The notes under the pieces: generated by a model
What the model was told of the DNA's origin: nothing
The model's database searches: none
What the model saw: the letters and a program-made list of their open reading frames with translations, nothing else
Position numbers and translations under genes: made by a program
In this document: positions 952 to 43,453 of the stretch, piece after piece
Position numbering within the stretch: position 1 is the stretch's first letter
How the letters are laid out: every line of letters starts with the position of its first letter
Assembly: GCA_963699175.1 (NCBI GenBank)
Contig: OY969418.1
Location: 7,325,352 to 7,389,351, forward strand
Direction: 5' to 3'
Length of the DNA stretch: 64,000 nt
Source: an uncultured Acidobacteriota bacterium
GTDB lineage: Bacteria; Acidobacteriota; Blastocatellia; RBC074

Positions 952-1041
952 GGCGCGTTGGTCGAGCGGTCGAAGGCGACCCCCTGGCAGGGGGGAGAGG
1001 CCTAGTCAGCCTCCACGTGGGTTCGAATCCCTCACGCGCCT
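952..1041 (+). tRNA. class II (long variable arm) tRNA-like gene, isotype uncertain
   Basis: 7-bp acceptor stem GGCGCGT/ACGCGCC. D-loop GAGCGGTCGAA almost identical to bacterial tRNA-Ser. T-loop GGGTTCGAATCCC. Variable-arm stem GAGGC/GCCTC. Anticodon loop reads CTGGCAG (apparent anticodon GGC). A:G mismatch at the base of the anticodon stem and a U:U in the T-stem. T-run follows. Confidence 0.6.
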
Positions 1042-1171
1042 CTTTTAGCCTCCCTTGTCACTCTCCCTAAATAGGCTTCGTGCGCTCTCATTGCCTCGTT
1101 TTTACTTGACTTTGCATAGGCGCTCAAGCATAATGTCACCTGTGTTGCTATTGAATATCTGAGGTGATTAT

Positions 1172-3139: not shown

Positions 3140-4327
3140 CTACAACTCCACCTTTTCCGCGCCCACCAAGTTCGCCAGCCGCATCAACGCTTCCTCCAAT
3201 TTTTTCCGGCGGGCCTTGGTTACTTTAACCGCCGGTTCCCAATACACCTTCCGCACTTCCAAGGTGCCGCGTTCCCGTTGAAACTTGGGATCAATGCGTC
3301 CGACCAATTGATCGCCTTCGAGGATCGGCAGCACGTAATAGCCATATCGCCGCTGCGGTTCTGGTACGAAAGCTTCAAAGCGATAATCGAAACCGAACAA
3401 TCTGGCCACGCGGGCGCGATCTCGGATGACGGGATCAAACGGCGAGAGCAAGCGCATCCGGTCAGGCGCGACGGGCAGTTTGCGCAACCGCGTTCGCCAA
3501 TTGCTGAGTGCAAAGCTGGCGCGCGGCTGCTCGTCATTCATTGTCGCAACTGTCACAGGCACAATTTCTCCGGACTTCGCTGCTTGCTCACACCATTGCC
3601 GCGCTTGCGCGAGCGTGACGGCATGCCAGAAATCAGCGATTTCTTTTGGTGTCGCCAACACTAAGCGCTCGAACGCCGTGCGGCACGCCCATTCGATATG
3701 TTCGGCTTCGGTTGGCGGGGCCAGAGTGGTCACTGCAGGCAAGACACGTTCGGTCAGGTCATACACCTTTTGAAACTTTTCCCGCCGCGCCACCATCAGT
3801 TCGCCCGTGAACCACAGATATTCGAGCGCGGTTTTTTGCGGCTTCCAATCCCACCAGCCAGCGCGCGCGCCCTGGCGGTCATGCTCGAAATCCTGTGAAC
3901 GCAGCGGCCCTTCGCGTGCGATGCGTTCACGCACGTGTGCCACGGTTTTCTCCGGCTGCGCGCCCATCCGCGGCCCCCACCATCTGTCTCGCAGCCTCGT
4001 TTCATAGCGCGCAAACCGCGGCTTCCAATGCGCAAACCAAGCCGTCGGAACCGCCGCCGCGTCGTGCGTCCAATGCTCAAACAGATGCCGGTTTTTTTCG
4101 AGCAGGTAAGTGAAATGTTCGTGACGATAACCGTCGAGCCGGCTGCCCAGCGTGAGATGGTGGGCACGCTCGACATAGTTGATCGAGTCCATTTGCACGA
4201 AGCCCATTTGCTCAATCAATCGGGCCAGCGTCGTGCGTGTGGCTTTGCGCGTGGGGTCAGCCAGTAAGCCCTGCGCGCCCAGAAATAAGCGGCGGGCGGC
4301 TTCAGTTGAAATCACGGGAGCGTTCAT
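3140..4327 (-). CDS. ycaQ: YcaQ/AlkZ-like winged-helix DNA glycosylase family protein (DUF1006-like)
   Basis: 395 aa. Overall resemblance to the YcaQ family (multiple W-rich wHTH segments, conserved C-terminal RYGYYVLP...GRID). ATG lies 2 nt after the hutU stop. Confidence 0.55.
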   Translation of the reverse strand: MNAPVISTEAARRLFLGAQGLLADPTRKATRTTLARLIEQMGFVQMDSINYVERAHHLTLGSRLDGYRHEHFTYLLEKNRHLFEHWTHDAAAVPTAWFAHWKPRFARYETRLRDRWWGPRMGAQPEKTVAHVRERIAREGPLRSQDFEHDRQGARAGWWDWKPQKTALEYLWFTGELMVARREKFQKVYDLTERVLPAVTTLAPPTEAEHIEWACRTAFERLVLATPKEIADFWHAVTLAQARQWCEQAAKSGEIVPVTVATMNDEQPRASFALSNWRTRLRKLPVAPDRMRLLSPFDPVIRDRARVARLFGFDYRFEAFVPEPQRRYGYYVLPILEGDQLVGRIDPKFQRERGTLEVRKVYWEPAVKVTKARRKKLEEALMRLANLVGAEKVEL

Positions 4328-4329
4328 CT

Positions 4330-5988
4330 TTATGTTTCCGCCATTGGCACTTTGACGTTGTGCGCTTGCGCTTCTTCGAGCGCCTGTTCGTACCCGGCGT
4401 CAACGTGCCGAATGATGCCCATGCCCGGATCGGTCGTTAGCACACGCCGCAGCCTTCTGGCCGCTCCCTCTGTGCCATCGGCCACCACGACCATTCCTGC
4501 GTGCAGCGAATAGCCAATGCCCACGCCGCCGCCATTGTGCACCGAGACCCACGAAGCGCCAGCCGCCGTGTTCAGCAAAGCATTCAAAATTGGCCAATCG
4601 CCAATCGCATCCGATCCATCGAGCATCGCTTCGGTTTCGCGGTATGGTGACGCGACCGAGCCGGAATCCAAATGATCGCGCCCGATCACAAGCGGCGCTT
4701 CGACTTCACCTTTCCGCACCAACTCATTCAACGCCTCGCCAAAGGTCGCGCGGTCACCATAACCGAGCCAGCAGACGCGCGCGGGCAATCCTTGAAAATG
4801 CACACGCTCACGCGCCAGCTTCAGCCAGCGTTCCAGAATCGGATCGTCGGGGAACAACTCCTGCGCCAGATCATCAGTCTTGCGAATGTCGTTGGGATTG
4901 CCCGAGAGCGCCACCCAGCGGAACGGCCCGCGCCCTTCGCAAAAGAGCGGGCGAATGTATTCCGGCACAAAGCCGGGAATTTCAAAAGCGTCGTCAACGC
5001 CCCCCTTTTGCGCCTGCGCGCGAATATTGTTGCCGTAATCAAAAGTCACCGCGCCCATTCGTTTCAAATCCAACATCGCCTGCACGTGCTTGGCCATCGC
5101 CGCCAGCGAACGTTTAATGTATTCGTCAGGATTCTCGCGGCGCAGCCGTAAAGCTTCATCCAGCGTCATCCCATTCGGCACATAGCCGTTCAACGCATCG
5201 TGCGCGCTTGTCTGATCGGTCAACACGTCGGGCACAATGCCGCGCCGCACCAACTCCGGCAACACGTCGGCACAATTGCCGACCAAGCCAACCGACAACG
5301 CGCGCCCTTGCCGCTGTGCTTCATTCAACTGCCGCAATGCATCATCCAAGTCATAACTGATCGCATCGCAATAGCCCGTCTGAATGCGTTTCTCGATTCG
5401 TGCCGGATCAACGTCAATGCCCAAAAAACACGCGCCATTCATCGTCGCGGCCAATGGCTGCGCGCCGCCCATCCCGCCCATTCCGCCCGACACGACCAAC
5501 TTGCCGTTGAGCGATCCACCAGCATTGGCGAAATGTTTTGCGCCCACTGCCGCGAATGTTTCAAACGTACCTTGAATGATTCCTTGTGAACCGATGTAGA
5601 TCCACGACCCGGCGGTCATCTGGCCGTACATCGTCAAGCCCAGCCGTTCCAGCCGATGAAACTCCTGCCAATTCGACCACTGGCCGACTAGATTGGAATT
5701 AGCGATCAATACGCGCGGCGCGTCTTCGTGCGTGCGAAAGATGCCGACCGGCTTACCCGATTGCACCAGCAGCGTCTCGTCGTTTTCGAGCGATTGCAGC
5801 GAACGCACGATGGCGTCAAAGGCTTGCCAGTTGCGCGCCGCTTTGCCCGTGCCGCCGTAGACGACCAACTCATCGGGCCGCTCGGCAACTTCCGGGTCGA
5901 GGTTGTTCATCAACATTCTGAGCGCGGCTTCCTGCACCCAGCCTTTACAACTGATTTGGGTTCCGCGTGGCGCTTTGATGGTTCGCAT
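4330..5988 (-). CDS. hutU: urocanate hydratase
   Basis: 552 aa. [13 protein letters not shown]-binding motif. Typical urocanase N-terminus [10 protein letters not shown]. Confidence 0.95.
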
Positions 5989-24710: not shown

Positions 24711-25309
24711 AACCCTATTTGCAATTGAAGCGGAAACGGTCGGTTACTGTACCGCACCAAGGTTGCCTGTTCCAATTTAGATAGCTTGCGCTACGCTGGT
24801 GAGGCCAAAGCCCGGCCACTTTATCAAAAATACCATTGACCGGCTTGCGTCCGGCACACTAGAATTCGCCCGTATCAGCAGATCTACTCATAAAAAGATA
24901 GAACGTCGCGGTTGGCGAGCCGCTATTTGCCAAAGATTTGTTGATGCCCGTGCGTAGCCAAGCTTGGCACTGTTAGCTGTCATCTAGCCCCGGCCAGAAC
25001 CGGCTTTGTTTCGCGGTGCTGATAAGCGCTACGCCTCCTTCACAAGATTCGTCCGATTAGCCGATACCCGGCAGGCGCATCGCAGTAGGAACTCGTAGAG
25101 CAGAGAGGGTACGCCGAGGTATCGCCCCGAAATCATCCTTTCTTATCGGTCTTCTCAAAGACCCCGTTGAGAGCCACTCTGTTGTTGCCCCGCAATCATC
25201 GTGAGGTTTGAAATGATTGTGCGGAATCGAGCCGCGCCCCATCCGCAGTGGCGCGCACTCGCCGCCAGCAAGCACGTGTAGCGCATTTGCAACCAAATGG
25301 GAGTCCAAG

Positions 25310-28300
25310 ATGAAGAACTCGCGTCAAGCCGCTCAGTGGAGCGTCCGTAACAAATTTCAGCAACTTTTCCGCCGCTTCAAGCAGCGCCCGCTGCAATGGG
25401 GTGTTTGGGGAGCGCTCGTGTTGGTCGGCGCCGCGTGGCTGGGCAACGCCGCGTGGCAACACGTCGCAGCGCAGCAGGTGCAATTCAACATCAACACGGT
25501 GGTCGGCAGCAGCACCACTTCTGGCCTGGTCGCCGATCTGAAGAACGCGCGTGGCGTGGCGGCGGCCAGCGCCACAGTCTTTTACATTGCGGACACAGGC
25601 AATCACGTGGTGCGGCGCGTGGATACTACGACCAACAGTGTCACGGTTGTGGCCGGTCAAGTCGGCTTGGCGGCCACTGATCCACTTCTTGCCAACGGAG
25701 ACGGTGGCGCGGCGACCAGCGCACGCTTGCGCGAGCCGTATGATGTGGCGGTGGATGTTTCCGGCGATCTCTACATTTCCGACACGGGCACTCACAAAAT
25801 TCGCAAAGTGACATTGGGCAGCCAGCCCGGCAATCCTATTATCTCGACGATTGCAGGCAACGGTAATCCCGGCCTCGATACGGCGATTGCTGGCGCTAGC
25901 TTCAGCGACCCACGCGGCCTGACCTACAGTTCCGCTGGCAGTGGCACACTCTACGTCGCTGACTCGGCCAATCATCGAGTCGTTGCGCTCACGGGGCTGG
26001 CCACTCCAACACCTATTTTACAGCTCATCGCGGGCAACGGCTCTCCGGGTAGTGATGGCGACACCGGCCCTGCGGCGGTGGCTTTTCTCAATGGCCCGCG
26101 TGGCGTAGCCATAGACGCTACCAACCGCGTTTTTATTGCCGACACTGGCAACAATAAAGTCCGCGTCGTTACCACCATCAGCGGGAATTCTACGATTGAT
26201 ACTTACGCGGGCACGGGCACGCCGGGTTTCGACCAGGACGGCAACATGGCCAACACGAGTCAACTCAATGCGCCTTATGACGTAGTGGTGGACGGGGCCA
26301 ACGTTTATATCAGCGATAACGCCAATAATCGTATCCGCAGAGTTGATGGCGCAGGCTTCATCTCGACCGTCGCGGGGCGCAATGGGAGTGGTTTCAGCGG
26401 CGACGGCACGCCAGCGACGAATTTCACGCTCAGTTTTCCGAGCGGCATGGTCTTCGTCAGCAACAGCGTGGTCTTTATGGATACGGGCAACCGGCGGCTG
26501 CGGCGTGTGGCAGGGACATCGCTCACCACAATCGTGAGCGATGGCTCCGGCGGCTTTGCCGGTGAAAACGTAGCGGCGACACAAGCGCGGCTCGATGGCC
26601 CGTCGGCTATCACTGTGGATACGCAGGGCAACTGGTACATCGCCGACACCAACAACCAAGTCATCCGCAAGGTCAACGCCAGTGATGGCAAGATCAACAC
26701 GATTGCCGGTATGCCTGGCGTGGCTTCAACTGATCCGGTCGCTGCCAACGGTGACGGTGGCCAGGCGAACATGGCCACGTTCAAATCTCCGTCAGGTGTG
26801 GCGGTTGACGCAACCGGGAACATCTTCGTGGCCGATACTGGCAACAAGCGTATCCGCCGGATTGATCGCAACACCAACATTATTACTACGGTGATGGGCG
26901 TAGTTGGCAATGCGCTCATTGGCTTTGCGGGCATTCCAGCCTTGCTCGAGCCAATTGGTGTGGTGGTGGACAGTCAGAATAACCTTTACGTGTCGGATGC
27001 CTCACAGCACATCGTTATTGCGCAGAGCGGAGCCGTAACTCCAACCAAAGTCTTCATCGCAGGCAAGGCCAATATGCCCGGCGCCAGTGGTGATGGTGGC
27101 AATGCGGAGAACGCTCGGCTCAATCGTCCCACGGGCATTGCGCTAGCCGGCGGCATCCTCTACGTCGCCGACACCAACAATCATCGCATTCGCAAGATCG
27201 AAAACATCAACGGCATCTTCCAGATTTCCAGCCTCGTGCCGAAGAGTGCGGGCACCATTCAAATCGTCCCGCGTCCGGGTTTTGAAGGTGACGGCGGCAA
27301 CGCCGATTTCGCAAAGCTCAATTCGCCCACTGGCGTGGCCGTGGACAGCGCGGGCGCTCTTTATATCTCGGATCGCGGCAACAATCGCATCCGCCGCGTT
27401 GCTCCCGGCACTGACCCTTTGTCAGGTAATCCAGCGAATATCATCACTACCGTTATCGGCAACGGCGAAGTCGGCTTCAGCGGTGACGGCGGCCCGGCAA
27501 TAGCGGCAGCTTTGGGCTTGCCGCTTAATATTGGCGTGACCAGCACGGGCGAGATTTTGGTGGCCGATACCGGTAACAACCGCATTCGCCGGGCCGTGCA
27601 ACCGCCAAACGTCAAACCGACTTTGACCCACCCTGGCAACAAAAACACGACTGAGGGACAGGCGCTCGGTTTCACCTTGCAGGGCAGCGACTCGAACGCA
27701 GGGCAAACGCTGACTTATGCAATGAACTTTACCCCGGCACTCTCGCCATCAACTCCGGCGGAGAAAGTGCCCACACTCAATGCCGCAACGGGCGCATTCT
27801 CGTGGACGCCGGCGGCTGATGTGGCGAGCAGCGGTACGCCCTCGGTGCAATTCCAATTCACCTTTACTGTCACTGACAACGGCAGTCCGACGCTGACGAG
27901 CGATCCGGTGACGATCACCATCACGGTCAACAACACCAATGGCGCGCCGATCGTAAATGCCGGCACGATTCCGACCACGCTCGAAGCGACTGCGGCCAAC
28001 GGCGCGCAATTGCAGCTCAACGGCACGGCCACCGATCCCGATGGCGATACGCCGCTGGCCATCATCTGGACTGACACGCGTCCGGGCCAGTCAGCGGTGC
28101 AGATTGCCAACCAATTAAGCCCGACCGTCACGCTCGCGCTCGGTCAACATTCGCTTGTGCTGACTGCCAGCGACGGCAAGGGCGGCACGGCCAGCACGCC
28201 TGCCAAAGCGCTCACGGTGCAAGACACGACCGCGCCCGTCTTTTCAAACTTGCCGAGCAACATCAACGATACGATCACGTCGGGCAATAGCAAAGTGGTC

Positions 28301-30703
28301 AACTTCACGCTGCCGACCGCGACCGACGCAGTCTCCGGGCCGCGTCAAGTCACGGCCTCGCCGCCCTCCGGCTCGACCTTCCCGGTCGGCGCGACCACTG
28401 TGACCTTTTCGGCCAGTGACACCGCAGGCAACACGCGCACGGCGACGATTACGGTCACGATCACCTGCGTCGGCACTGGCTGCACAGGTGGCGGGCCTAA
28501 CCCGAACGCGATGGCTTTCACCATCTCAGCCTTCGCCGGCAACGGCAACTTCGGCGTAAGCGGCGACAACGGCACGGCGAACGCGGCAACTTTGAAAGAG
28601 CCGCGCGGCATAGCGATGGATGGCGCGAATAACGTCTACATCGCCGACCAGGAAGCGCACACCATCCGCCGCGTCAATGCGCAGGGCATCATCAGCCTCT
28701 TCGCGGGCAACGGCCAGAAAGGCTTCTCGGGCGACAGCGGCGCGGCGGCAAACGCGCGCTTCAACAATCCGACCGGTCTCGTCGTAGATGTGACGCGCAA
28801 CCTGCTCTACGTCGCCGACACCTGGAATCACCGCATCCGCCGGATTGATCTGGCCAACAACACGATCACGACGCTGGCCGGGAATGGCACGGCTGGCTTG
28901 GGCAGCGATGGCGCGGCAGGCAGCACGCCACTCAACTATCCGTCCGCCGTCGCGGTGGATGGCGCGGGTGTCGTCTACGTCGCCGACACCGGCAACAATC
29001 GCGTCGTCAAGATCAGCAGCAACACGCTCACAACCGTCGCGGGCAATGGCCAAGTCGGCAGCAGCGGCGACGGCGGCGCGCCCTTGCAAGCCAAGCTCAA
29101 TCATCCAACTGGCGTAGCCGTGACGACTGATGGCGCGACAATCTTCGTAGTGGATCGCGGTAACAATCGCGTGCGTAAGATTACTGCCAGCGCCATCACC
29201 AACTTTGCGGGCAATGGCACTGCTGCGAGCAGCGGTGACAACGGCCAGGCAACTGCCGCCAGTTTGAACGCGCCGACCGACGTAGCGGTGGATGGCTCCG
29301 GCAACGTCTTCATCACCGATACGGACGGCGAGCGCATCCGCAAGGTCAGCGCGAGCGACAACGTCATTATGACCATCGCGGGCAACGGCACGGCAGGCAA
29401 CGGCGGCGACGATGGCCCGGCGACCAGCGCCACGCTCAACACGCCGACGGCGCTCGTGCGCAACAGTTCGACCGGTGTGATCTTCTTCTGCGACACCGGC
29501 AATCTGCGCGTGCGCCGCTTGCTGCCAGTCGGGCCGACCAATCACACGCCGGTGCCCGATCAAGTGGCGAACATCCAGTTGACCAAGTCGCAGCAACTCA
29601 ATATCGGGCTATCGGCGACTGATTCTGATGGTGATCCGGTCACGTTCACGCTCGTGCCTGCGCTCTCCTTTGTCACGGTCACGAATGCGAACCCTGCCGC
29701 ACGCACGGCGACGCTCTTCATCAATCCGGCGGGCGGCAACGCGGGCGTCTACACCGTACGTGTGCAAGCCGCTGACAACAAAGGCGGCACTGGCCAGACG
29801 CCCGAATTCACCATTACCGTCACTGACCCGAGCGGCCCGACCAACAATCCGCCCACTGCAGTGATGAACATCTTGCCCTCGGTCATAACTGCTCCGAACG
29901 GCCAACAAACCGCTACTGTCAATCTCAACGGCACCAGTTCATCTGACCCGGACGGTGATCCGCTCACCTACGCCTGGTTTGATGGCGCAGCGGCGATTGC
30001 GACTGGGGCAACGGCGACCGTGCAGCTTGGGCCAGGCCCGCATGCAATCAAGCTGGTCGTGACTGACAGCAAGAATGCGACCGGCGCCAGCCCGACGCAA
30101 AACATCACAGTGCAGCTTGCCCAGGCTGGCAATAATCCTCCGACGGCGGTAATCAAGAATCTGCAAGCTTCGTATACGGCCACGAATGGTGCAAACGTAG
30201 TGGTCACGCTTGACGGTTCGGATTCGATGGATCCCGATGGCGATCCACTGTCCTTCAAGTGGTTCGATAACGGCACGGAGATAGCTAACGGTGTAACCCC
30301 GGCTGTCACGTTGGCGCTCGGCCAACACAGCATCAAGGTCCTTGTGAGTGATGATAAGGGCGCGAGTGCTGAGAGTGCATCGCAGACGGTCACAGTTACA
30401 GCTTCGCAGGGCGGGTCTGAACTGGACATCACCACCGTCTCGCCTGATTCCGGCAGGCGTGGTCAAACACTTACAATCACCGTGAATGGTCAAGGCTTCG
30501 TCCAGGGGTGTTCGGTCAGAATTTTCAAGGGCGGACTCCCAAGCCAGGTTGGCATCACGACCACGACTACCTTTATTTCGAGCACGCAACTGTCGGTGAA
30601 GGTGGTCATTTCGGAGCAAGCACAGGTAGGCGCGCGCATCGTCAGTGTCACCAATCCCGGTGGAGCAATGGTGCAGGCGAACGCTTTCTCGGTTTTGCAG
30701 TAG
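25310..30703 (+). CDS. giant (about 1800 aa) cell-surface protein with NHL repeats, HYR, PKD/Ig-like and IPT/TIG domains
   Basis: Start at MKNSRQ with GGGAG SD. N-terminal TM. More than 20 NHL-type repeats (YIADTGNHRIRKI-like). HYR-like segment (TTAPVFSNLP...ATITVTI). DPDGDPL PKD-like units. C-terminal IPT (ITTVSPDSGRRGQTLTITVNGQGF). Confidence 0.85.
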   Translation: MKNSRQAAQWSVRNKFQQLFRRFKQRPLQWGVWGALVLVGAAWLGNAAWQHVAAQQVQFNINTVVGSSTTSGLVADLKNARGVAAASATVFYIADTGNHVVRRVDTTTNSVTVVAGQVGLAATDPLLANGDGGAATSARLREPYDVAVDVSGDLYISDTGTHKIRKVTLGSQPGNPIISTIAGNGNPGLDTAIAGASFSDPRGLTYSSAGSGTLYVADSANHRVVALTGLATPTPILQLIAGNGSPGSDGDTGPAAVAFLNGPRGVAIDATNRVFIADTGNNKVRVVTTISGNSTIDTYAGTGTPGFDQDGNMANTSQLNAPYDVVVDGANVYISDNANNRIRRVDGAGFISTVAGRNGSGFSGDGTPATNFTLSFPSGMVFVSNSVVFMDTGNRRLRRVAGTSLTTIVSDGSGGFAGENVAATQARLDGPSAITVDTQGNWYIADTNNQVIRKVNASDGKINTIAGMPGVASTDPVAANGDGGQANMATFKSPSGVAVDATGNIFVADTGNKRIRRIDRNTNIITTVMGVVGNALIGFAGIPALLEPIGVVVDSQNNLYVSDASQHIVIAQSGAVTPTKVFIAGKANMPGASGDGGNAENARLNRPTGIALAGGILYVADTNNHRIRKIENINGIFQISSLVPKSAGTIQIVPRPGFEGDGGNADFAKLNSPTGVAVDSAGALYISDRGNNRIRRVAPGTDPLSGNPANIITTVIGNGEVGFSGDGGPAIAAALGLPLNIGVTSTGEILVADTGNNRIRRAVQPPNVKPTLTHPGNKNTTEGQALGFTLQGSDSNAGQTLTYAMNFTPALSPSTPAEKVPTLNAATGAFSWTPAADVASSGTPSVQFQFTFTVTDNGSPTLTSDPVTITITVNNTNGAPIVNAGTIPTTLEATAANGAQLQLNGTATDPDGDTPLAIIWTDTRPGQSAVQIANQLSPTVTLALGQHSLVLTASDGKGGTASTPAKALTVQDTTAPVFSNLPSNINDTITSGNSKVVNFTLPTATDAVSGPRQVTASPPSGSTFPVGATTVTFSASDTAGNTRTATITVTITCVGTGCTGGGPNPNAMAFTISAFAGNGNFGVSGDNGTANAATLKEPRGIAMDGANNVYIADQEAHTIRRVNAQGIISLFAGNGQKGFSGDSGAAANARFNNPTGLVVDVTRNLLYVADTWNHRIRRIDLANNTITTLAGNGTAGLGSDGAAGSTPLNYPSAVAVDGAGVVYVADTGNNRVVKISSNTLTTVAGNGQVGSSGDGGAPLQAKLNHPTGVAVTTDGATIFVVDRGNNRVRKITASAITNFAGNGTAASSGDNGQATAASLNAPTDVAVDGSGNVFITDTDGERIRKVSASDNVIMTIAGNGTAGNGGDDGPATSATLNTPTALVRNSSTGVIFFCDTGNLRVRRLLPVGPTNHTPVPDQVANIQLTKSQQLNIGLSATDSDGDPVTFTLVPALSFVTVTNANPAARTATLFINPAGGNAGVYTVRVQAADNKGGTGQTPEFTITVTDPSGPTNNPPTAVMNILPSVITAPNGQQTATVNLNGTSSSDPDGDPLTYAWFDGAAAIATGATATVQLGPGPHAIKLVVTDSKNATGASPTQNITVQLAQAGNNPPTAVIKNLQASYTATNGANVVVTLDGSDSMDPDGDPLSFKWFDNGTEIANGVTPAVTLALGQHSIKVLVSDDKGASAESASQTVTVTASQGGSELDITTVSPDSGRRGQTLTITVNGQGFVQGCSVRIFKGGLPSQVGITTTTTFISSTQLSVKVVISEQAQVGARIVSVTNPGGAMVQANAFSVLQ

Positions 30704-34742: not shown

Positions 34743-35012
34743 TCAATCCGTCACTTCGACCGTATCAATAATCCCCACCACCGCCGCATCCACCGGACGA
34801 TCTTTCAACCCTTCGGCCAGGCGCGCGCTGCTGCCCGCCACAACCAGCACCTTTTCGCGAAAGCCCGCGCCGACAGTGTCAACCGCGACCAGATAGCTGC
34901 TCTCATCCTCGCCAGTCAGCGTGATGGGACGCACGAGCAGGAGCTTCTTGCCTTCCAAGCGCGGGTCTTTGCGCGTGGCGACGACATTACCGATGATGCG
35001 ACCGATGATCAT
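34743..35012 (-). CDS. bacterial microcompartment vertex protein (BMC-P; EutN/CcmL/PduN family)
   Basis: Start at MIIGRIIGNVVATRKDPRLEGKKLLLV...VAVDTVGAG...VLVVAGSSAR...VDAAVVGIID, the canonical PF03319 pattern. Confidence 0.9.
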   Translation of the reverse strand: MIIGRIIGNVVATRKDPRLEGKKLLLVRPITLTGEDESSYLVAVDTVGAGFREKVLVVAGSSARLAEGLKDRPVDAAVVGIIDTVEVTD

Positions 35013-35087
35013 AAATTTCGAGTAGACAGTAGACAGTAGAAAGAGGTTCAACCTGTCTACAGCCTCCTGTCTCCTGTCTACGATTTC
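35013..35087. repeat. intercistronic GTAGACAG direct/inverted repeat element between BMC-H and BMC-P
   Basis: GAGTAGACAGTAGACAGTAG ... CTGTCTACAGCCTCCTGTCTCCTGTCTAC, same unit family as at 41527..41612. Confidence 0.6.
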
Positions 35088-35375
35088 TTATTTCTTCCGT
35101 GATTCAACGGCGACCGGCAACGCTTCGTCTACCGAGGCGTGCGGGCGCGGGATGACGTGGACGCTGACGAGTTCGCCCACGCGGCGCGCAGCGGCAGCGC
35201 CTGCGTCGGTGGCGGCTTTCACGGCGGCCACGTCGCCGCGCACGATGGCGGTCACAAAGCCGCCGCCGATCTTTTCATAGCCGACCAGCGTCACATTGGC
35301 CGCTTTGACCATCGCGTCCGAGGCTTCGATCATCGCGACCAAGCCTTTGGTTTCGATCATTCCGAGTGCTTCCAT
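35088..35375 (-). CDS. bacterial microcompartment shell hexamer protein (BMC-H; PduA/EutM/CcmK family)
   Basis: [79 protein letters not shown], canonical PF00936. SD AAAGGAA upstream. Confidence 0.95.
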
Positions 35376-35390
35376 CTTTGGGTGTTCCTT

Positions 35391-35591
35391 TCAATCTGCT
35401 TCGTCTTTTTTGGCTTTGATGATTTCGTATCCCGTAACGACTTTGCGCCCGTCGGGATGCTCCGTCCAAATCCAGCGTATCTCTTCGTCTTCCTGCAAAA
35501 CGATGTTGTCCACCAGCGGCAAGGCAGCGGGCTGCCCCGTTTGTGGCGCAACGGCGATGCGGGTTTTCTCTTCTTTTGGCTCTGGTTTCAT
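35391..35591 (-). CDS. small hypothetical protein (66 aa) inside the BMC operon
   Basis: ORF track. 15-nt gap to BMC-H and 22-nt gap to the aldolase. No motif recognised. Confidence 0.45.
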   Translation of the reverse strand: MKPEPKEEKTRIAVAPQTGQPAALPLVDNIVLQEDEEIRWIWTEHPDGRKVVTGYEIIKAKKDEAD

Positions 35592-35613
35592 GCTCTGTTA
35601 CCTCCTCGGCAAT

Positions 35614-36399
35614 TTAACGGCTCAAGAGCCGGGCCATTTCAGTCAATAGCTGGATCAACTCCTCGCGCGTCAATGATACCGCCCCGTCGTTCAGCCGTCC
35701 CACTGCTCCGACGCCGCTGCCGCAAACCTGTCCGGTGCGTGCTTCAACGGGCATCACGCCGTTGCGTTCGCGAATCTCGAAGAGCTTCGGAATTGCATAA
35801 TCAGGAATCGTATTTTCGTTGCCCAGCGTGCGCGCAATGAAGCTGATCTTGCAGGTGTGTTCGAGCGTTTCCAGCTTGTTGAACGCCTTCTCCAACGTGT
35901 CGGCGTAAGCCACTGCGCCGTGATTCGCCATCAACAGCGCATCGTGATATTGCAGAAACGGCTCAATCGCATCGGTCAATTCGCGCGTCGAAGGTGTCCC
36001 GTAAGCCGCCAGTGGCACACAACCCAGCGTCAACACGACCTCGGACAAGATAGCTTTACTCAGCGACAAGCCCGCTACGGCGAAGCCCGTTGCGTGCGGC
36101 GGATGCGCGTGTACGACGGCGTGAATGTCAGGCCGCTGTTCATAAATCACGCGATGCATCGGCCATTCGGAAGAGACTGTATAGGCAGACGGCTCGAGCG
36201 CATTGCCAGCCAGATCAACTACACACATCATCTCCGGCTTCATCCAACCTTTGCTCACGCCCGACGGCGTCGCGATCAGGCGATTCTCGCCGACGCGCAC
36301 GCTGATATTGCCATCGCCTGCGACTAGCAGTCCACGGTCGTAACAGCGCGTGGCGATCTCGACAATCTCTACTTTGACTTTCTGCTCATCAACCATCAT
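35614..36399 (-). CDS. class II aldolase (FucA/RhaD family) with C-terminal encapsulation-peptide-like extension
   Basis: Start at MMVDEQ. GDGNISVR and VVHAHPPHATGFA metal-binding motifs. About 45-aa C-terminal tail: Gly/Ser-rich linker (GQVCGSGVGAVGRLNDGAVS) plus amphipathic helix LTREELIQLLTEMARLL. Confidence 0.85.
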   Translation of the reverse strand: MMVDEQKVKVEIVEIATRCYDRGLLVAGDGNISVRVGENRLIATPSGVSKGWMKPEMMCVVDLAGNALEPSAYTVSSEWPMHRVIYEQRPDIHAVVHAHPPHATGFAVAGLSLSKAILSEVVLTLGCVPLAAYGTPSTRELTDAIEPFLQYHDALLMANHGAVAYADTLEKAFNKLETLEHTCKISFIARTLGNENTIPDYAIPKLFEIRERNGVMPVEARTGQVCGSGVGAVGRLNDGAVSLTREELIQLLTEMARLLSR

Positions 36400-36415
36400 C
36401 AACCATCTGGCAATC

Positions 36416-37117
36416 TCAAAGCGCCTGACCATTCTCTGCGCTGGCAAACCGAAATAGATCGAGGTGATTGACCGTTACGGCCTCCTCGCTCGGATGCGCC
36501 AGGAAATAAGAAAGGCTTTCCAACGAGACCGACAAGTCAACGTTCTTCACCTTCACGCCCGGCTTTGGGTTGAGCACGATGGGGGCGAAGTTGAGCACGG
36601 CCTTGATGCCCGCTTCGGTCACGCGGTCTAGTACTTGTTGTGCGGCAAAGGCAGGCACGGCAATCAAGACGATCTCAATTGTTTCGCGCTCGATAACTTC
36701 GGGCAGCCGCTCGGTCGAAAGAATCTCCAAGCCGTTGGCCGCGCGCGTCCCGATCTTGCTCGGCTCGTCGTCAAAGAGCGCCACCAGGCGGAAAGCAGCG
36801 CGATTGAAGCCCTGATATTTTGCCAACGCCAAGCCCAGATTGCCGACGCCGACGATGGCGATGCGCCGCTCGACGTTCAAGCCTAGGATCTGTTGCAAGT
36901 GTCGGCGCAGTTCTTTGACGTAATAGCCCACGCCGCGCACGCCGAATTCGCCGAAGTAGGCCAGGTCTTTGCGGATTTGCGCCGAATTCAAATTGAACTG
37001 TTCGGCCAACGTCTGCGACGAAACCGTCTCGATGCCTGCGCTTTCCAATTCGCTCAAACAGCGCAGGTAGACTGAAAGGCGATTGGTGGTGAGTTCCGAA
37101 ATCTTCTCTGTCTTCAT
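36416..37117 (-). CDS. rex: redox-sensing transcriptional repressor Rex
   Basis: Start at MKTEKISELTTNRLSVYLRCL (wHTH). Rossmann IAIVGVGNLGLAL. Overall Rex layout (about 230 aa). Confidence 0.85.
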   Translation of the reverse strand: MKTEKISELTTNRLSVYLRCLSELESAGIETVSSQTLAEQFNLNSAQIRKDLAYFGEFGVRGVGYYVKELRRHLQQILGLNVERRIAIVGVGNLGLALAKYQGFNRAAFRLVALFDDEPSKIGTRAANGLEILSTERLPEVIERETIEIVLIAVPAFAAQQVLDRVTEAGIKAVLNFAPIVLNPKPGVKVKNVDLSVSLESLSYFLAHPSEEAVTVNHLDLFRFASAENGQAL

Positions 37118-37335
37118 CTGGGGATTGCTATGCGGTGCTTCGATCAAATGCTTTAGAGTCTGCTCTATTAAACGAGCAGCAACGATAACGCAGGCTCAAC
37201 AAGACTGTCAACGCGCTGTTCTGACGGCCTTTCTGTGCAAGGCTGAAGTGCAAATTGACAGCTTGTGTAGGCGCTGCGTAAACTCCGAAGGCGGTTGTCC
37301 GTGACATCTTTGACGGACGGCGAACAGGAGCAGCA

Positions 37336-37944
37336 TTGATTGCACAGATCACTGGCAAGCTATTGCACAAACAACCCAACGCGGTCATTGTTGACGTAGG
37401 CGGCGTCGGCTACGAACTGACTGTGCCGCTCTCGACTTTCTACGAGGTGGGCGAAATCGGGGCGGAGGTCTCGCTGCGCGCTTACACCTATGTGCGCGAG
37501 GACGCTCTGCAACTTTTCGGTTTCCGCACCGACTTGGAGAAGCAGTTGTTCCTGCTGCTCACCAGCGTCAGCGGCGTCGGTCCGAAACTGGCGATCACGC
37601 TCTTGTCGGGCATGAGCGCCGACGATTTGATCCGCGCGATTCGGGACAATGATCTGGCGCGGTTGACGGGCATTCCCGGTGTGGGGCGAAAGACAGGAGA
37701 GCGTTTAGTCGTCGAGTTGCGCGACAAGCTGCTGAAACTGACGCTTGCAACGTCCGCCGAACCGCTGCTGCCGGCTTCGGCGTTTGCTAGCTCGGCAATG
37801 AGCGATGATGTAATTTCCGCCTTAGTCAATCTCGGTTATCAGAAATCGGCGGCGGAAAAGGCCGTGGCGAAGGTCTTCAAAGTAAACCCGGATGTGAATT
37901 TTGAGATGGCGTTGAAAATGGCTTTGAGTTCGCTCGCGCGCTAG
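37336..37944 (+). CDS. ruvA: Holliday junction DNA helicase subunit RuvA
   Basis: 202 aa. HhH motifs (LTSVSGVGPKLA, LTGIPGVGRKTGERL). Confidence 0.9.
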   Translation: MIAQITGKLLHKQPNAVIVDVGGVGYELTVPLSTFYEVGEIGAEVSLRAYTYVREDALQLFGFRTDLEKQLFLLLTSVSGVGPKLAITLLSGMSADDLIRAIRDNDLARLTGIPGVGRKTGERLVVELRDKLLKLTLATSAEPLLPASAFASSAMSDDVISALVNLGYQKSAAEKAVAKVFKVNPDVNFEMALKMALSSLAR

Positions 37945-37950
37945 GAGCTT

Positions 37951-39416
37951 GTGGGAGCACGCATGATGTCACCAGGCTACAAATGGAAACCCATCGAAGA
38001 TTTGCCGGAGGATTGGCCAAAACTCGCTTCTAGCGAATTGGCCGGTCTGTTTGCTGTCTGGAAAGAGCAAGCCGTGCAGTTGAAAGACTCGCCTGCCTAT
38101 CGAGAATTTCAGGTGCGCTTGCGTCGTGAATGGGCCATTGAAACTGGCATTATCGAAGGGCTGTACGACATTGATCGCGGGGTCACGCGCACTTTGATCG
38201 AGCGCGGATTGCACGCTAGCCTCATTGCGCACGGCGACGCCAACAAACCGGCGGAAGAGATCATTCCCATGCTCAAAGATCACGAAATGGTGGTCGAAGG
38301 GCTGTTTGATTTCGTTGGCCAGCAACGCCAGCTCTCGACCTCATACATCAAGCAAGTTCACCAAGCTCTAACCACCCATCAGGAGACTGCCAAAGGTATA
38401 GACAGTTTGGGACAGCCCACGCAAATTCCGTTGCTTCGTGGCGATTGGAAAAAGTGGCCTAACAACCCGACACGGCCTGATGGCAAAGTCCACGAGTTTT
38501 GCCCACCTGAACAAGTTGCATCCGAGATGGATCGTCTGATTGAAACGCATCAGCAGCATTTGCAAGCAGGCGTTCCGCCAGAAGTGGAGGCCGCATGGCT
38601 CCATCATCGCTTTACGCAAATTCACCCGTTTCAAGATGGGAATGGACGTGTGGCGCGGGCGCTGGCGTCGCTGATCTTTATTCGTGCTGAGTGGTTTCCT
38701 TTTGTTGTTCACCGTGACGACCGTGCTGATTATATTGATTGCTTGGAAAAAGCGGACGCCAGGGACATGACCTCATTAGTGAAGCTAGTGGGCCAAAGCC
38801 AAAGGAAAGCATTCAATCAGGCTATCAAGCTATCAGATAACGTGTTGTTGCCTGCTGATTCTGTTGAGCAAATTATTTTTGCTGGTGGGCGTTATTTGAA
38901 AGAGAAAGTGGAGAATCAACGGCTACTCGCTGAAGAACTCAAAAGGCTCCACGCTCAATATAAACATGTTGCTGAAACTCTTCAGGCGACTACCAATGAA
39001 CGGTTTGATAAACTTGTCGGCGATTTTGACAACCTCTTGCGTGAGTCTGGCAGCCAGCAGACGATTCGTATAGAAAAATATGGTTATGGATTTGGGCCAA
39101 TGTCCAAAGCGACTTTTGACCATGCAAATGCCAGCATCACAAAGCAATTAGGTTGTGATGCTGATATATGGTCGGATGGCTGGGGCTGTTCCATCCGTAT
39201 AGGAGATAGCATTGGAATGCACTTCGGCTTTTATCGGTTGCTCAACTCAGATTGGCGGATTGCCTGTGGGTTAGCTTACCTGAGAGCAACTAATCCTGAG
39301 CAGTTTTTCCCACTGTGCAGTGAAGCATTTCAATGCTCAACTAGCGAGGATTTGACAACCGTCGTCCCTCGCTTCAAGCAATGGCTTGAGGATGCGCTGA
39401 TCCTCGGCTTTGACTA

Positions 39417-39435
<19 letters not shown>
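37951..39435 (+). CDS. Fic/DOC-family protein (class II-like, with N-terminal inhibitory motif) plus about 250-aa C-terminal domain of unknown function
   Basis: Fic motif [14 protein letters not shown]. Inhibitory (S/T)xxxE(G/N) motif as TGIIEG near residue 70. Markedly AT-richer than flanks. Inserted between ruvA and ruvB. Confidence 0.85.
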
Positions 39436-40471
<1,036 letters not shown>

Positions 40472-40472
<1 letters not shown>

Positions 40473-41530
40473 TGCATATCTCCGCTTTCAATTTTGAGCT
40501 GCCCGACGAATTGATCGCGCAGGAGCCGCTGTCGCAACGTGACCAGTCGCGCATGCTCATCGTTGACCGTCGCACACAAAATTGGCGCGACAGCGCGTTT
40601 GCTGAATTACCGTCATTGCTAGCAGCCGGTGATGTGATGGTGCTCAACAATACGCGCGTTTTTCCGGCGCGCCTGCTGGGCCATCGCGTGCTACCCAATG
40701 GTGAACGCGGCGCGCAGGTTGAAGTGTTATTGGCACGGCTGCTCGACGCCGGCAGCAACGAATGGGAAGTGATTGCGCGACCGGGGCGCGCGTTGAAACT
40801 AGGCGCGCAAATCGAATTTGGTCATGGGCGGTTGCGCGGCGAGGTGACCGGGCTGCTCGAAGACGGCAAACGGCGCGTGCGTTTTACCTGTGAGGGCGAC
40901 TTCAATCAAGTGGTGGACGAGCTTGGCAATACGCCGCTGCCGCCCTACATCAAGCGCGCGCAGAGCGAAGAGCGCCGCTTGCACGAGCCGCGTTACCAGA
41001 CCGTTTACGCCCAGCAACGTGGTTCGATTGCCGCGCCGACCGCCGGGCTGCACTTCACCCCACGTGTGCTGGAAGAGCTAAAAGCGCGTGGCGTGCAGTT
41101 TGCTGAGATTACACATCATGTCGGGTACGCGACATTTCAACCCGTGCGCGTCGAGCAGGTCGAAGAGCATCGCATCGAAGCCGAAAGCTATACGATTGAC
41201 GAAACCGCCGCCCGCACGATCAACATTGCAAAAGCAAGTGGCAAGCGCGTTCTCGTAGTTGGAACTACCGGCACGCGTGCGCTCGAAAGCGCGGCCAACG
41301 CAGACGGCATGGTGCGCGCCGAAAGACGCGCGACGGAACTGTTCATCTATCCTGGTTATCGTTTCAAAGCGGCAGATGCGCTCTTGACCAACTTTCACTT
41401 GCCCCAATCGTCGCTGTTGATGTTGGTCGCGGCCTTTGCCGGATGTGAATTGGTGCTGGCCGCCTATCGCCACGCGGTCGCGCAACGCTATCGGTTTTAT
41501 AGTTATGGCGATTGCATGCTGATCTTTTGA
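40472..41530 (+). CDS. queA: S-adenosylmethionine:tRNA ribosyltransferase-isomerase
   Basis: 352 aa. N-terminus MHISAFNFELPDELIAQEP is typical of QueA. Confidence 0.95.
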
Positions 41531-42112: not shown

Positions 42113-42415
42113 GACCTTATTTTCTTTATTTTCCGCTGCCGCCGCACCATATCGTGTGGCAAAGATAGTCCTGAGTGGCTTGTCGCAATTTTTCTGCCTG
42201 AACCGGCTAACCCACTGGAACTTAACTGTTTGCCCAACTAATACTCGCCTCCAAGCAGGCCGCTAATCACTTTTTCGGTCATTTTGTTACCCCGCAATAA
42301 TTGACAGCCCAAAAGCTAATCTGTTATAAACCCAGAACTTAGAGTAAGTAATACGGTGGCATTCAGCGGGTAAGGGGCAAAGAGTAATTCAATTCAGTTG
42401 ACGGGAAGAATTGAA

Positions 42416-43453
42416 ATGGCAGCACGCGCAAAGAAAGCCAAATCCAAAGACAAACCGAAGGCTAAGGCTAAACTTGCCAAAGCGACTAGAAAGCCTGCCA
42501 GGGCAGGTTCAGCCAAACTTGCCAAAGCGAAGTCAGCCAAGAAAACTCTATCTGCCAAAACTAAATCACTCTCAAAAAGTAAAGTTGCCAAGCAGCCAGT
42601 CATAAAGCCAGTCATAAAGCCAGTCATAAAGCCAGTCATAAAGAAAGCTGCTGTTACAAAAGCCAAGCCAAGCAAGGTGGTCAGACCCGGCAAACTCAGG
42701 GCAAGCAAAACAAAACTGAGCAAAAAAAAGCTAGCGGTAACTAAAACGACCAGCGTCGGAAACAAGCAAACCCGCACCAAAGGGAATGGGATAAAAAAGG
42801 CTCCGAGGCTTAGCAAGCCAAGCGTTGCCAAAACAACTTCGCGCGCACCGGTGCCTGCGGCCAAGCCACGTAATGCGTCTATGCTCAGACGAATATTGCC
42901 GCCCGCGCCTGCGCCTATACCAAAACCCGAACCACGCAAGACGGCTACGGCTGCCGCGTTACGCGCTTTTGAACAGGCTCTCAGAGTTTTCAATCGCCGG
43001 CAGTTTGAAGAGGCCAAGTCACACTTCGAACATTTGCAGCAACAGTTTCCGCTCGAAGTCGAAATCACCCACCGGGCGCAAATGTACATCCAGGTCTGCA
43101 CGCAGAAATTGGCGCAGGCTCCGGCCCCGGTAGTGCGCAACGTGTCGGCGGACGAGTTGTATGATCGTGGTGTCTATGCGCTCAATCTGGGCGATGTCGC
43201 CCAAGCGCGCAGCTTTTTTGAAAAAGCTTTGCGGATCAATCCAAACGAGCCACACTTCCTCTACTCGCTGGCCGTTACCCACGCGAAGAGCGGGGCACAG
43301 GAAGAGGCGTTGGATTACCTGCGCCGTTCCATCCAGATGCAACCACGTTTCCGCTCGCAGGCTTTCGATGATGTGGATTTTTCCGGCTTGCGCGAGAACC
43401 GGCAATTTCAAGAATTGCTTGGCCTGACTTCGCCATTTGATCTACTGCGTTAA
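42416..43453 (+). CDS. Lys/Ala-rich (histone H1-like) N-terminal region plus C-terminal TPR-repeat protein
   Basis: Start at [18 protein letters not shown]... basic low-complexity region including PVIK x4 (12-bp tandem repeat at 42595..42643). Three to four TPR-like helices at the C-terminus. Confidence 0.6.

Follow-up and report, generated by a model that had tools for sequence, protein, structure and literature searches.

An apparently old fic gene between ruvA and ruvB in Blastocatellia-like Acidobacteria, encoding a predicted class II-like Fic enzyme with a variable C-terminal domain

To our knowledge, the Fic AMPylases are a well-known class of enzymes, and the activators and targets of their autoinhibited bacterial class II members are mostly unknown. 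The adenylylation signature of Fic enzymes is the loop HxFx(D/E)GNGRxxR, and an intramolecular (class II) arrangement of the inhibitory motif has been described (PMC3667792). SoFic from Shewanella oneidensis (SO_4266) has been shown experimentally to be a single-gene defence AMPylase (10.1101/2022.05.11.491447; PMC12249575), with a C-terminal domain that is reported to regulate toxicity (PMC12249575), and FICD/HYPE is a class II Fic that switches its activity through non-catalytic parts and its oligomeric state (PMC6826200). In CapRel(SJ46), one and the same C-terminal domain keeps the toxin inhibited and is the direct sensor of a phage protein (PMC9712102). Here we describe a fic gene that lies between ruvA and ruvB in an uncultured Acidobacteriota bacterium of the Blastocatellia, within a stretch of 64,000 nucleotides of contig OY969418.1 (assembly GCA_963699175.1, positions 7,325,352 to 7,389,351), the whole of which is referred to as the window. 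Comparison with related loci leads us to read fic as an old, mostly vertically inherited resident of a ruvA-fic-ruvB-queA string in a Blastocatellia-like lineage of Acidobacteria, and we hold this identity and evolutionary history of the gene with high confidence.

By sequence and by fold, the best solved relatives of the window protein are BT_2513 (PDB 3CUC; profile E=4e-27, TMt 0.75) and FICD (profile E=2e-18), both of which cover only its N-terminal 290 amino acids; the fold matches to 3CUC, FICD and SoFic, all three of them class II enzymes, have a probability of 1.00. Identity to BT_2513 and FICD is only 16-21%, neither possesses the C-terminal alpha/beta domain (hereafter C-domain) of the window protein, and FICD differs further in its TPR repeats, its membrane anchor and its target, BiP. 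Like SoFic, whose structures 3EQX/3ZCN its fold matches, the window protein is a stand-alone Fic with an intramolecular inhibitory glutamate motif near the N-terminus and a canonical catalytic loop. It is nevertheless no SoFic equivalog, its score for NCBIfam NF046030 being 29.5 bits, over amino acids 202-247 only, where the cut-off is 550. Its C-domain has a different fold and gave no SoFic match in a search with that domain only, the gene is overlapped by ruvB where SoFic has a small downstream antitoxin gene, AS1, and it sits in a core operon. The class I Fic toxins (VbhT/VbhA, FicT/FicA) share the catalytic signature and the principle of glutamate-based inhibition (PMC3667792), and their DNA-topology targets GyrB and ParE would fit a ruvAB neighbourhood (PMC7479194), but their inhibitory helix comes from a separate small antitoxin gene, whereas the motif of the window protein lies in the same chain. 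The likeness to CapRel(SJ46) is an analogy of logic, not homology, in that a single polypeptide carries a conserved enzymatic toxin domain at its N-terminus. The C-terminal domain of CapRel is reportedly highly variable between homologues. CapRel is a RelA/SpoT-like pyrophosphokinase and unrelated to Fic as an enzyme, and in the window protein the inhibitory element is N-terminal and a sensing role of the C-domain is inferred only.

The gene string and the parts of fic are arranged as follows.

36416..37147, minus strand: rex-like redox repressor gene, the divergent neighbour (Pfam Put_DNA-bind_N and CoA_binding), part of the conserved synteny block
37255..37284, plus strand: promoter-like site TTGACA-18-TAAACT, 5' of ruvA (consensus scan, 10/12 matches)
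37336..37944, plus strand: ruvA, with RuvA_N, HHH_5 and RuvA_C domains
37951..39435, plus strand: fic open reading frame, at most 494 amino acids from GTG; probable start ATG 37963 (490 amino acids)
38143..38160, plus strand: putative inhibitory motif TGIIEG, of the form (S/T)xxxE(G/N), amino acids 65-70, inside an invariant 11-residue block
38332..38676, plus strand: Fic core domain PF02661, amino acids 128-242 (E=1.2e-18)
38623..38658, plus strand: catalytic loop, amino acids 225-236, matching HxFx(D/E)GNGRxxR
38836..39432, plus strand: hypervariable C-domain, amino acids ~296-494, from an AlphaFold2 (AF2) model; the part of fic with the lowest GC content at third codon positions (GC3)
39417..40472, plus strand: ruvB, with RuvB_N (E=1e-78), AAA_lid_4 and RuvB_C; its first in-frame start is TTG
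40472..41530, plus strand: queA (Queuosine_synth, E=2e-126), last conserved member of the gene string

A protein search returned thousands of Fic proteins, headed by a family of full-length proteins of ~475-500 amino acids that is represented in Acidobacteria/Blastocatellia as well as in other phyla. We fetched the best 80 genomic loci and searched them with the RuvA, RuvB, QueA and Rex proteins of the window. All nine of the closest loci (L001-L009, with Fic identity falling from 75% to 45%) have the order ruvA-fic-ruvB, flanked in most cases by rex on the upstream side and by queA on the downstream side, and none of the other 71 has it, their neighbouring genes being unrelated to one another. 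Four further metagenomic proteins (L102-L105) sit in the same string, including its bacterial microcompartment (BMC), EutN and aldolase genes, which brings the total to 14 independent loci, window included, from genomes and metagenomes of Acidobacteria/Blastocatellia. The Fic homologues at the 13 other loci are intact and full-length (475-522 amino acids), and the genes are as tightly joined as in the window, ranging from a 4-nt overlap to a gap of 14 nt between the ruvA stop and the fic start, and from a 19-nt overlap to a gap of 10 nt between the fic stop and the ruvB start. The RuvB proteins of these loci are 76-85% identical to that of the window.

Neighbour-joining trees unite the Fic proteins associated with ruvAB in a single clade, whose sub-clades mirror the trees of RuvA and RuvB. 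A scan with RuvA also uncovered two pairs of loci in which rex-ruvA-ruvB-queA is present without fic, L081/L082 and L083/L084; altogether rex lies 5' of ruvA in L002, L004, L005, L007-L009, L081-L084, L102, L103 and L105. When the tree is rooted on L083/L084, L081/L082 are nested among the Fic-bearing loci in 100/100 bootstraps, which suggests a secondary loss of fic. One old gain followed by loss would be the economical history of fic at the ruvA-ruvB junction.

In the Fic-less loci L081-L084, ruvA and ruvB are 82-144 nt apart, and the spacers hold strongly palindromic elements:

L081, 4613-4694: palindrome-filled ruvA-ruvB spacer
L082, 1409-1539: palindrome-filled ruvA-ruvB spacer
L083, 2796-2939: palindrome-filled ruvA-ruvB spacer
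L084, 4115-4257: palindrome-filled ruvA-ruvB spacer

The L083 spacer has ~25-nt terminal inverted repeats around ~95 nt. By their sequence, these elements look like insertions of the miniature inverted-repeat transposable element (MITE) or repetitive extragenic palindrome (REP) type, or else like deletion scars, and their presence makes the ruvA-ruvB junction look like a general hot spot of insertion. L001, and only L001, has a gene for a beta-class carbonic anhydrase (4303-4971; Pro_CA, E=1e-55) between ruvA and fic; the record is labelled 'Heliomicrobium', its genes are Acidobacteria-like, and it is probably mis-binned. A further fic allele, P0086, is 82-83% identical to the alleles of L007 and L008 and lies at an unrelated locus (L099, 3001-4431) among beta-propeller, sulfatase and transporter genes, from which it follows that the whole fic gene can relocate.

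While the position of fic is stable, the 3' half of the gene is not. Between L005 and L009, RuvA is 99% and RuvB 96% identical at the amino acid level, the Fic N-terminal domain (N-domain) 78% and the C-domain only 28%; the corresponding values for L001 and L003 are 89%, 89%, 92% and 25%, and for the window and its nearest relative, L104, 83%, 85%, 81% and 20%. The window shares its C-domain type instead with the more distant L001/L002 (RuvA 63%, RuvB 80-83%, N-domain 85-86%, C-domain 60-61%). At the nucleotide level, identity in the pairs L005/L009 and L003/L002 starts at ~90% in ruvA, declines through fic to 30-50% in its 3' half, and returns to ~90% at the ruvB start. In pairs that differ in type, the synonymous divergence (dS) of the C-domain is saturated while that of the flanking ruvA and ruvB is 0.4-0.7, which argues that the types are older than the divergence of their hosts and were exchanged or kept as polymorphism rather than evolved in place. 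Across 110 proteins of the family, 24% of the pairs with an N-domain identity of 90-95% have a C-domain identity below 40%. A sharp drop in identity, a cassette older than its flanks and a type that is incongruent with host relatedness are the marks of a locus diversified by recombination, and we conclude from these alignments that C-domain types are apparently exchanged between close relatives by recombination within the locus. Horizontal exchange thus takes place as replacement of alleles or cassettes inside a fixed locus.

Non-synonymous divergence (dN) is 3-5 times as high in the C-domain as in the N-domain. Between loci of one type, the dN/dS ratio (omega; NG86 method) of the C-domain is 0.19-0.34, which indicates that the domain is functional. 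An AF2 model of amino acids 299-494, built with 82 homologues, is predicted with confidence (pLDDT 93, pTM 0.86). Its elements are a helix of 62 residues, an antiparallel sheet of six strands accompanied by one short helix, and a terminal helix of 26 residues that closes with WRRQL. Conservation is concentrated in strand 6 (FQ[FC]S) and in the last helix (RFxxWLxxxLxxGLxxWRxQL), and is lowest in strands 1 and 5, in the second helix and in the loops around them. On this model the C-domain is best described as a family-specific alpha/beta domain in which the anchoring helices are conserved and the remainder occurs in many deeply diverged types. No Pfam family matched it, and a Foldseek search with the fold gave no match at E<=1e-3 among PDB structures or the viral predicted structures of BFVD. 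The original prediction, made on the window sequence alone, had put a region without recognisable domain at the C-terminal ~250 amino acids, and was right as to the lack of Pfam and PDB matches, its extent being nearer ~200.

With a profile built from 30 diverse C-domains, 673 clusters (at 50% identity) were recovered from 1.84 billion representatives, always with the domain at the C-terminus. A Fic domain was present in 10/10 of the longer matches scanned, and among the matches scanned the C-domain occurs solely as a Fic fusion. Short matches raised the question whether the domain also exists by itself or attached to different effectors; their sequence starts within the last part of the Fic domain, and they were rejected as gene fragments. 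One protein, P0187 (723 amino acids), carries an extra N-terminal AbiEi_4/DUF6088 region, an abortive-infection antitoxin-like winged helix-turn-helix, before Fic and the C-domain. A literature search returned no paper that links Fic with ruvA/ruvB and none that describes a hypervariable Fic C-terminal domain; the architecture, its cassette-like diversification and its fixed ruvAB address are absent from the literature searched, while the enzyme class itself is ordinary.

The catalytic half of the protein presents the opposite picture. PF02661 scores 68.2 bits against a gathering cut-off of 24, which places the protein in the Fic/Fido superfamily, and the residues H, P, F, D, G, N, G, R and R of the catalytic loop, which carries the signature of AMPylating Fic enzymes, are invariant in 18 homologues. 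TGIIEG lies 155 residues before the catalytic histidine in the same chain, a placement that fits the intramolecular arrangement (PMC3667792) and makes this a class II-like Fic. T65, G66 and E69 are invariant in the 18 sequences, and the last position of the motif is G, N or K among homologues. In a wider set of 82 homologues the catalytic motif and the equivalents of T65, G66 and E69 are all invariant. Both features, the canonical loop and an inhibitory-type motif near the N-terminus, had been recognized in the original prediction and are borne out. The N-domain has an omega (NG86) of 0.04-0.11, no higher than those of ruvA and ruvB. Strong purifying selection acts on both its catalytic and its inhibitory motif. 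We therefore regard the protein, from its sequence, as a predicted Fic enzyme with an AMP-transfer-type loop and a class II-like motif placement. The N-terminal 140 amino acids alone, searched against PDB sequences, gave no solved Fic relative, the one match being a spurious one to a Dyp-peroxidase. AMPylating Fic enzymes dock their target on a beta-hairpin flap N-terminal of the catalytic loop; a hairpin that might correspond to it is modelled at residues 142-146 and 152-156 (490-residue numbering), with a pLDDT of ~70-75.

According to the open reading frames and Pfam matches of the window, fic is an intact reading frame between its neighbours. GTG 37951 is merely its first possible start; the 490-residue database copy P0001 and the N-termini of homologues make ATG 37963 (or 37966) the probable one, with GGGAG 5 nt upstream of ATG 37963. 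The gap to ruvA is thus 6-18 nt. The overlap with the TTG start of ruvB that had been proposed is confirmed, as the fic stop (TGA 39433-39435) overlaps by 19 nt a ruvB read from TTG 39417. An alternative ruvB start is the in-frame CTG 39432 behind GGAG, and either of the two is possible. The conserved Fic C-terminus W-R-(R/K)-Q-L is coded TGG AGA AGA CAA CTC in the window (39418-39432) and TGG AGR ARR CAA ... in L001, L007 and L008; in the ruvB frame these codons place a GGAG just 5' of the possible starts of ruvB, and L007 has, in addition, an ATG that shares bases with the fic stop (ATGA).

Such tight packing against both neighbours implies that fic must be co-transcribed with them and makes translational coupling probable. 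Between the genes from ruvA to queA there is no terminator-like site, the sole one in that stretch being inside fic (38650-38671). An alignment of 13 upstream regions shows the block 'AAATTGACA...CGTA(A/C)ACT' to be conserved upstream of ruvA in most related loci, and its TTGACA part is kept also in the Fic-less L081/L082; the site at 37255..37284 is the probable promoter of ruvA-fic-ruvB-queA. Only this -35/-10 block and a rex-proximal block are conserved, and none of the 13 regions revealed a conserved LexA-type palindrome. A separate antitoxin gene has no room at either junction of the window, and the packing is equally tight in 9 relatives; the adjacent small antitoxin gene that typifies class I Fic toxin-antitoxin pairs is thus not present at the window locus.

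Taken together, these observations lead us to propose an old, operon-embedded, autoinhibited class II-like AMPylase with a swappable C-terminal module that senses a trigger or target, a reading to which we would give an even chance. The inhibitory glutamate would keep the enzyme inactive; recognition of a trigger or target would fall to the C-terminal module, which would thereby relieve or direct the activity; the released enzyme would then AMPylate a cellular protein, and might, as FICD does, also remove the modification (PMC6826200). That the C-domain is a specificity or sensor module could equally well prove right or wrong. The contrast between a frozen catalytic half (omega ~0.05) and a well-defined partner domain in dozens of interchangeable types amounts to a natural experiment, and points to the C-domain as the part in which the activating signal or the target should be sought.

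As to biological role, a part in genetic conflict seems the likeliest of those considered, since the recognition module diversifies independently of RuvA and RuvB and some relatives occur in BREX, restriction and AbiEi contexts. Three proteobacterial loci, in Aquariibacter, a Pseudomonadota metagenome-assembled genome and Thiodictyon, are embedded in BREX systems with the genes on one strand:

L014, 1171-10208: PglX-Fic-BrxC
L015, 1183-10214: PglX-Fic-BrxC
L018, 335-5546: Fic-BrxC

A type IIG restriction enzyme adjoins the fic of L025, and among the immediate neighbours at the 71 loci ParE and AbiEii genes occur in a few. The best PADLOC matches of the window protein are PDC-S04 and SoFic (SoFic model, E=7e-19). 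The resemblance to genes of BREX and defence-island hot spots extends from family members between pglX and brxC to the exchange of variants between conserved flanking genes at the acidobacterial locus, with the difference that the window slot lies inside a probably translationally coupled housekeeping operon and holds one gene, not an island. The conflict role would then be an abortive-infection-type defence with CapRel-like logic, in which the ruvA-ruvB junction would be a fixed slot open to recombination and no pointer to a function specific to RuvAB, and a defence function in this sense is put forward tentatively, as something short of an even prospect. If it holds, a new sensor domain and a new chromosomal address for immunity, inside ruvAB, would be added in a poorly studied soil phylum. 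A bolder form, in which the junction is a fixed 'immune receptor' slot for a single-chain Fic abortive-infection protein whose novel C-domain directly senses phage or invader proteins, with homologous recombination in the conserved ruvA/ruvB flanks importing new sensor cassettes and expression tied to the recombination-repair operon, strikes us as rather doubtful. Were it true, phages would depend on or perturb the recombination-repair operon to which fic expression is tied, and the ~670-cluster family of Fic proteins with this C-domain would constitute a widespread, undescribed Fic-based innate immunity distinct from SoFic.

Several points weigh against this reading as a whole. The trees are neighbour-joining trees of two proteins rooted on L083/L084. 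The model has a pLDDT below 50 for residues 64-93, next to the inhibitory motif, and is unreliable there, so that obstruction of the active site, with the inhibitory glutamate set against the second arginine of the signature loop, is a prediction. Most of the 71 loci, which lie outside Acidobacteria, have ordinary metabolic neighbours, and an enrichment in defence islands is not demonstrated. A long-term stay in a housekeeping operon is atypical for defence genes. The family is nearly absent from viral contigs (2 matches), which is neutral for defence and leaves one line of support fewer, and it includes no member with a known activity, target or phenotype. Furthermore, the C-domain has an overall omega under 1, which does not show positive selection, and the pattern would look no different under ancient balanced polymorphism or under plain exchange of alleles with no arms race involved.

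The alternative that survives best, though we consider it unlikely, is that Fic is a dedicated regulator of recombination or repair in this lineage that is co-expressed with RuvA and RuvB, reversibly AMPylates (or de-AMPylates) RuvB, RuvA or some other protein of DNA transactions, for example GyrB or ParE, and so tunes branch migration or replication restart. It would account for strict operon membership, with overlapping or abutting frames at 14 loci over a long evolutionary time, and for the conserved promoter-like site upstream of ruvA, and it has precedents in bacterial Fic proteins that AMPylate GyrB and ParE (PMC7479194), in a Coxiella Fic enzyme activated by DNA binding (PMC10628234; 8CIL, among our fold matches) and in the toggling of FICD between AMPylation and deAMPylation (PMC6826200). 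One cyanobacterial homologue adjoins ruvB (L043), an adjacency that was rejected as a functional link because it is 1/71 and the genes are convergent. A fixed partner would lead one to expect a fixed recognition module, and the presumed module instead varies between loci whose RuvA and RuvB are 96-99% identical; that variation beside near-constant RuvA and RuvB, together with the 71/80 best loci that belong to other phyla and lack ruvAB nearby, makes a RuvAB-dedicated role less likely than one in conflict. L081/L082 seem to have lost fic and yet keep ruvA-ruvB-queA, and the lack of a conserved LexA-type palindrome upstream of ruvA points the same way.

It is also possible, and in our judgement still less probable, that the gene is a selfish or neutral passenger, toxin-like and retained since its removal disturbs the coupled ruvB, with a weakly constrained C-terminal half that is shuffled by recombination beside core genes. 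The absence from ruvB of a spacer or an obvious Shine-Dalgarno sequence of its own, where it overlaps or abuts fic, would favour such a history, as would a junction that tolerates other cargo (the beta-carbonic anhydrase of L001, the palindromic elements of the Fic-less loci) and the raised dN of the C-domain. Against it stand 14/14 copies that are intact and full-length, the invariance of catalytic and inhibitory residues at an omega of 0.04-0.11, a C-domain that keeps a confidently predicted common fold with omega below 0.35, and the evident possibility of clean loss, as in L081/L082.

The base composition of fic bears on its origin. As the original prediction stated, the gene is AT-richer than its flanks, most of all in its 3' half: GC is 0.55-0.62 in the flanks and dips to 0.44 at 38700-39150. 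The 41 genes of the window have a GC3 of 0.656 +/- 0.067; that of fic is 0.51, 2.2 standard deviations lower, with 0.55 in the N-terminal part and 0.44 (-3.2 standard deviations) in the C-terminal part. Both GC1 (0.59) and GC2 (0.40) are normal, which confines the anomaly to synonymous sites and rules out amino acid composition as its cause. In all ten loci measured fic has a lower GC3 (0.33-0.56) than ruvA and ruvB (0.51-0.74), which makes this a standing trait of the gene and no sign of recent arrival. The low GC had been interpreted as horizontal acquisition, with the proviso that the same gene of native composition at this position in related genomes would indicate an ancient resident. Gene and position do recur in relatives, at 14 loci with a Fic clade congruent with the RuvA and RuvB trees, which goes against recent acquisition; the native composition does not, low GC3 being found in all ten loci.

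A recent, chance landing of a transferred fic between ruvA and ruvB, with un-ameliorated donor composition, is accordingly very improbable, as a GC3 2-3 standard deviations below the window mean, a family scattered over many phyla among unrelated neighbours (and hence mobile on long time scales), the displaced allele P0086 and the grouping of the window allele with L001/L002 and not with its nearest host relative L104 are set against congruent trees, low GC3 in every locus measured, flanks with short repeats at chance level only and no target-site duplications, the absence of an integrase or tRNA at the junction and of mobility genes in 35-43 kb of the window, and junctions of 6-18 nt and -19 nt that leave no room for element ends, while its strong form is already refuted by the 13 other occupied loci, whose RuvB is only 76-85% identical to that of the window. 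Genome scans should take into account that a persistent low-GC gene in a core operon can be an ancient resident, and that the alleles of such a gene, not its presence, can be what is horizontally exchanged.

Elsewhere in the window, genes for an EutN/CcmL vertex protein, a BMC shell protein and a class II aldolase (34743-36447, minus strand) directly adjoin rex, and L103 and L105 have this microcompartment and aldolase block conserved beside their ruvA operon. A 91-nt tRNA at 952-1042 (plus strand; 41.6 bits in Rfam) is called tRNA-Ala(GGC) by ARAGORN and has a long variable arm, a Ser/Leu-like D-arm and an anticodon loop, CTGGCAG, that differs by one base from that of tRNA-Ser(GGA). An Ala anticodon on a class II (Ser-type) body, and with it a candidate mistranslating tRNA, is one possibility; a mis-call is the other. 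The gene at 42398-43453 (plus strand) encodes a Lys/Ala/Pro-rich N-terminal half with 12-residue repeats followed by TPR repeats; its DNA is low in GC (0.45), and its A-over-T skew is very strong, reaching +0.50. An 1828-residue protein (25217-30703, plus strand) with NHL/teneurin-NHL beta-propeller repeats and HYR, PKD and Big_9 domains is probably a large surface or secreted protein.

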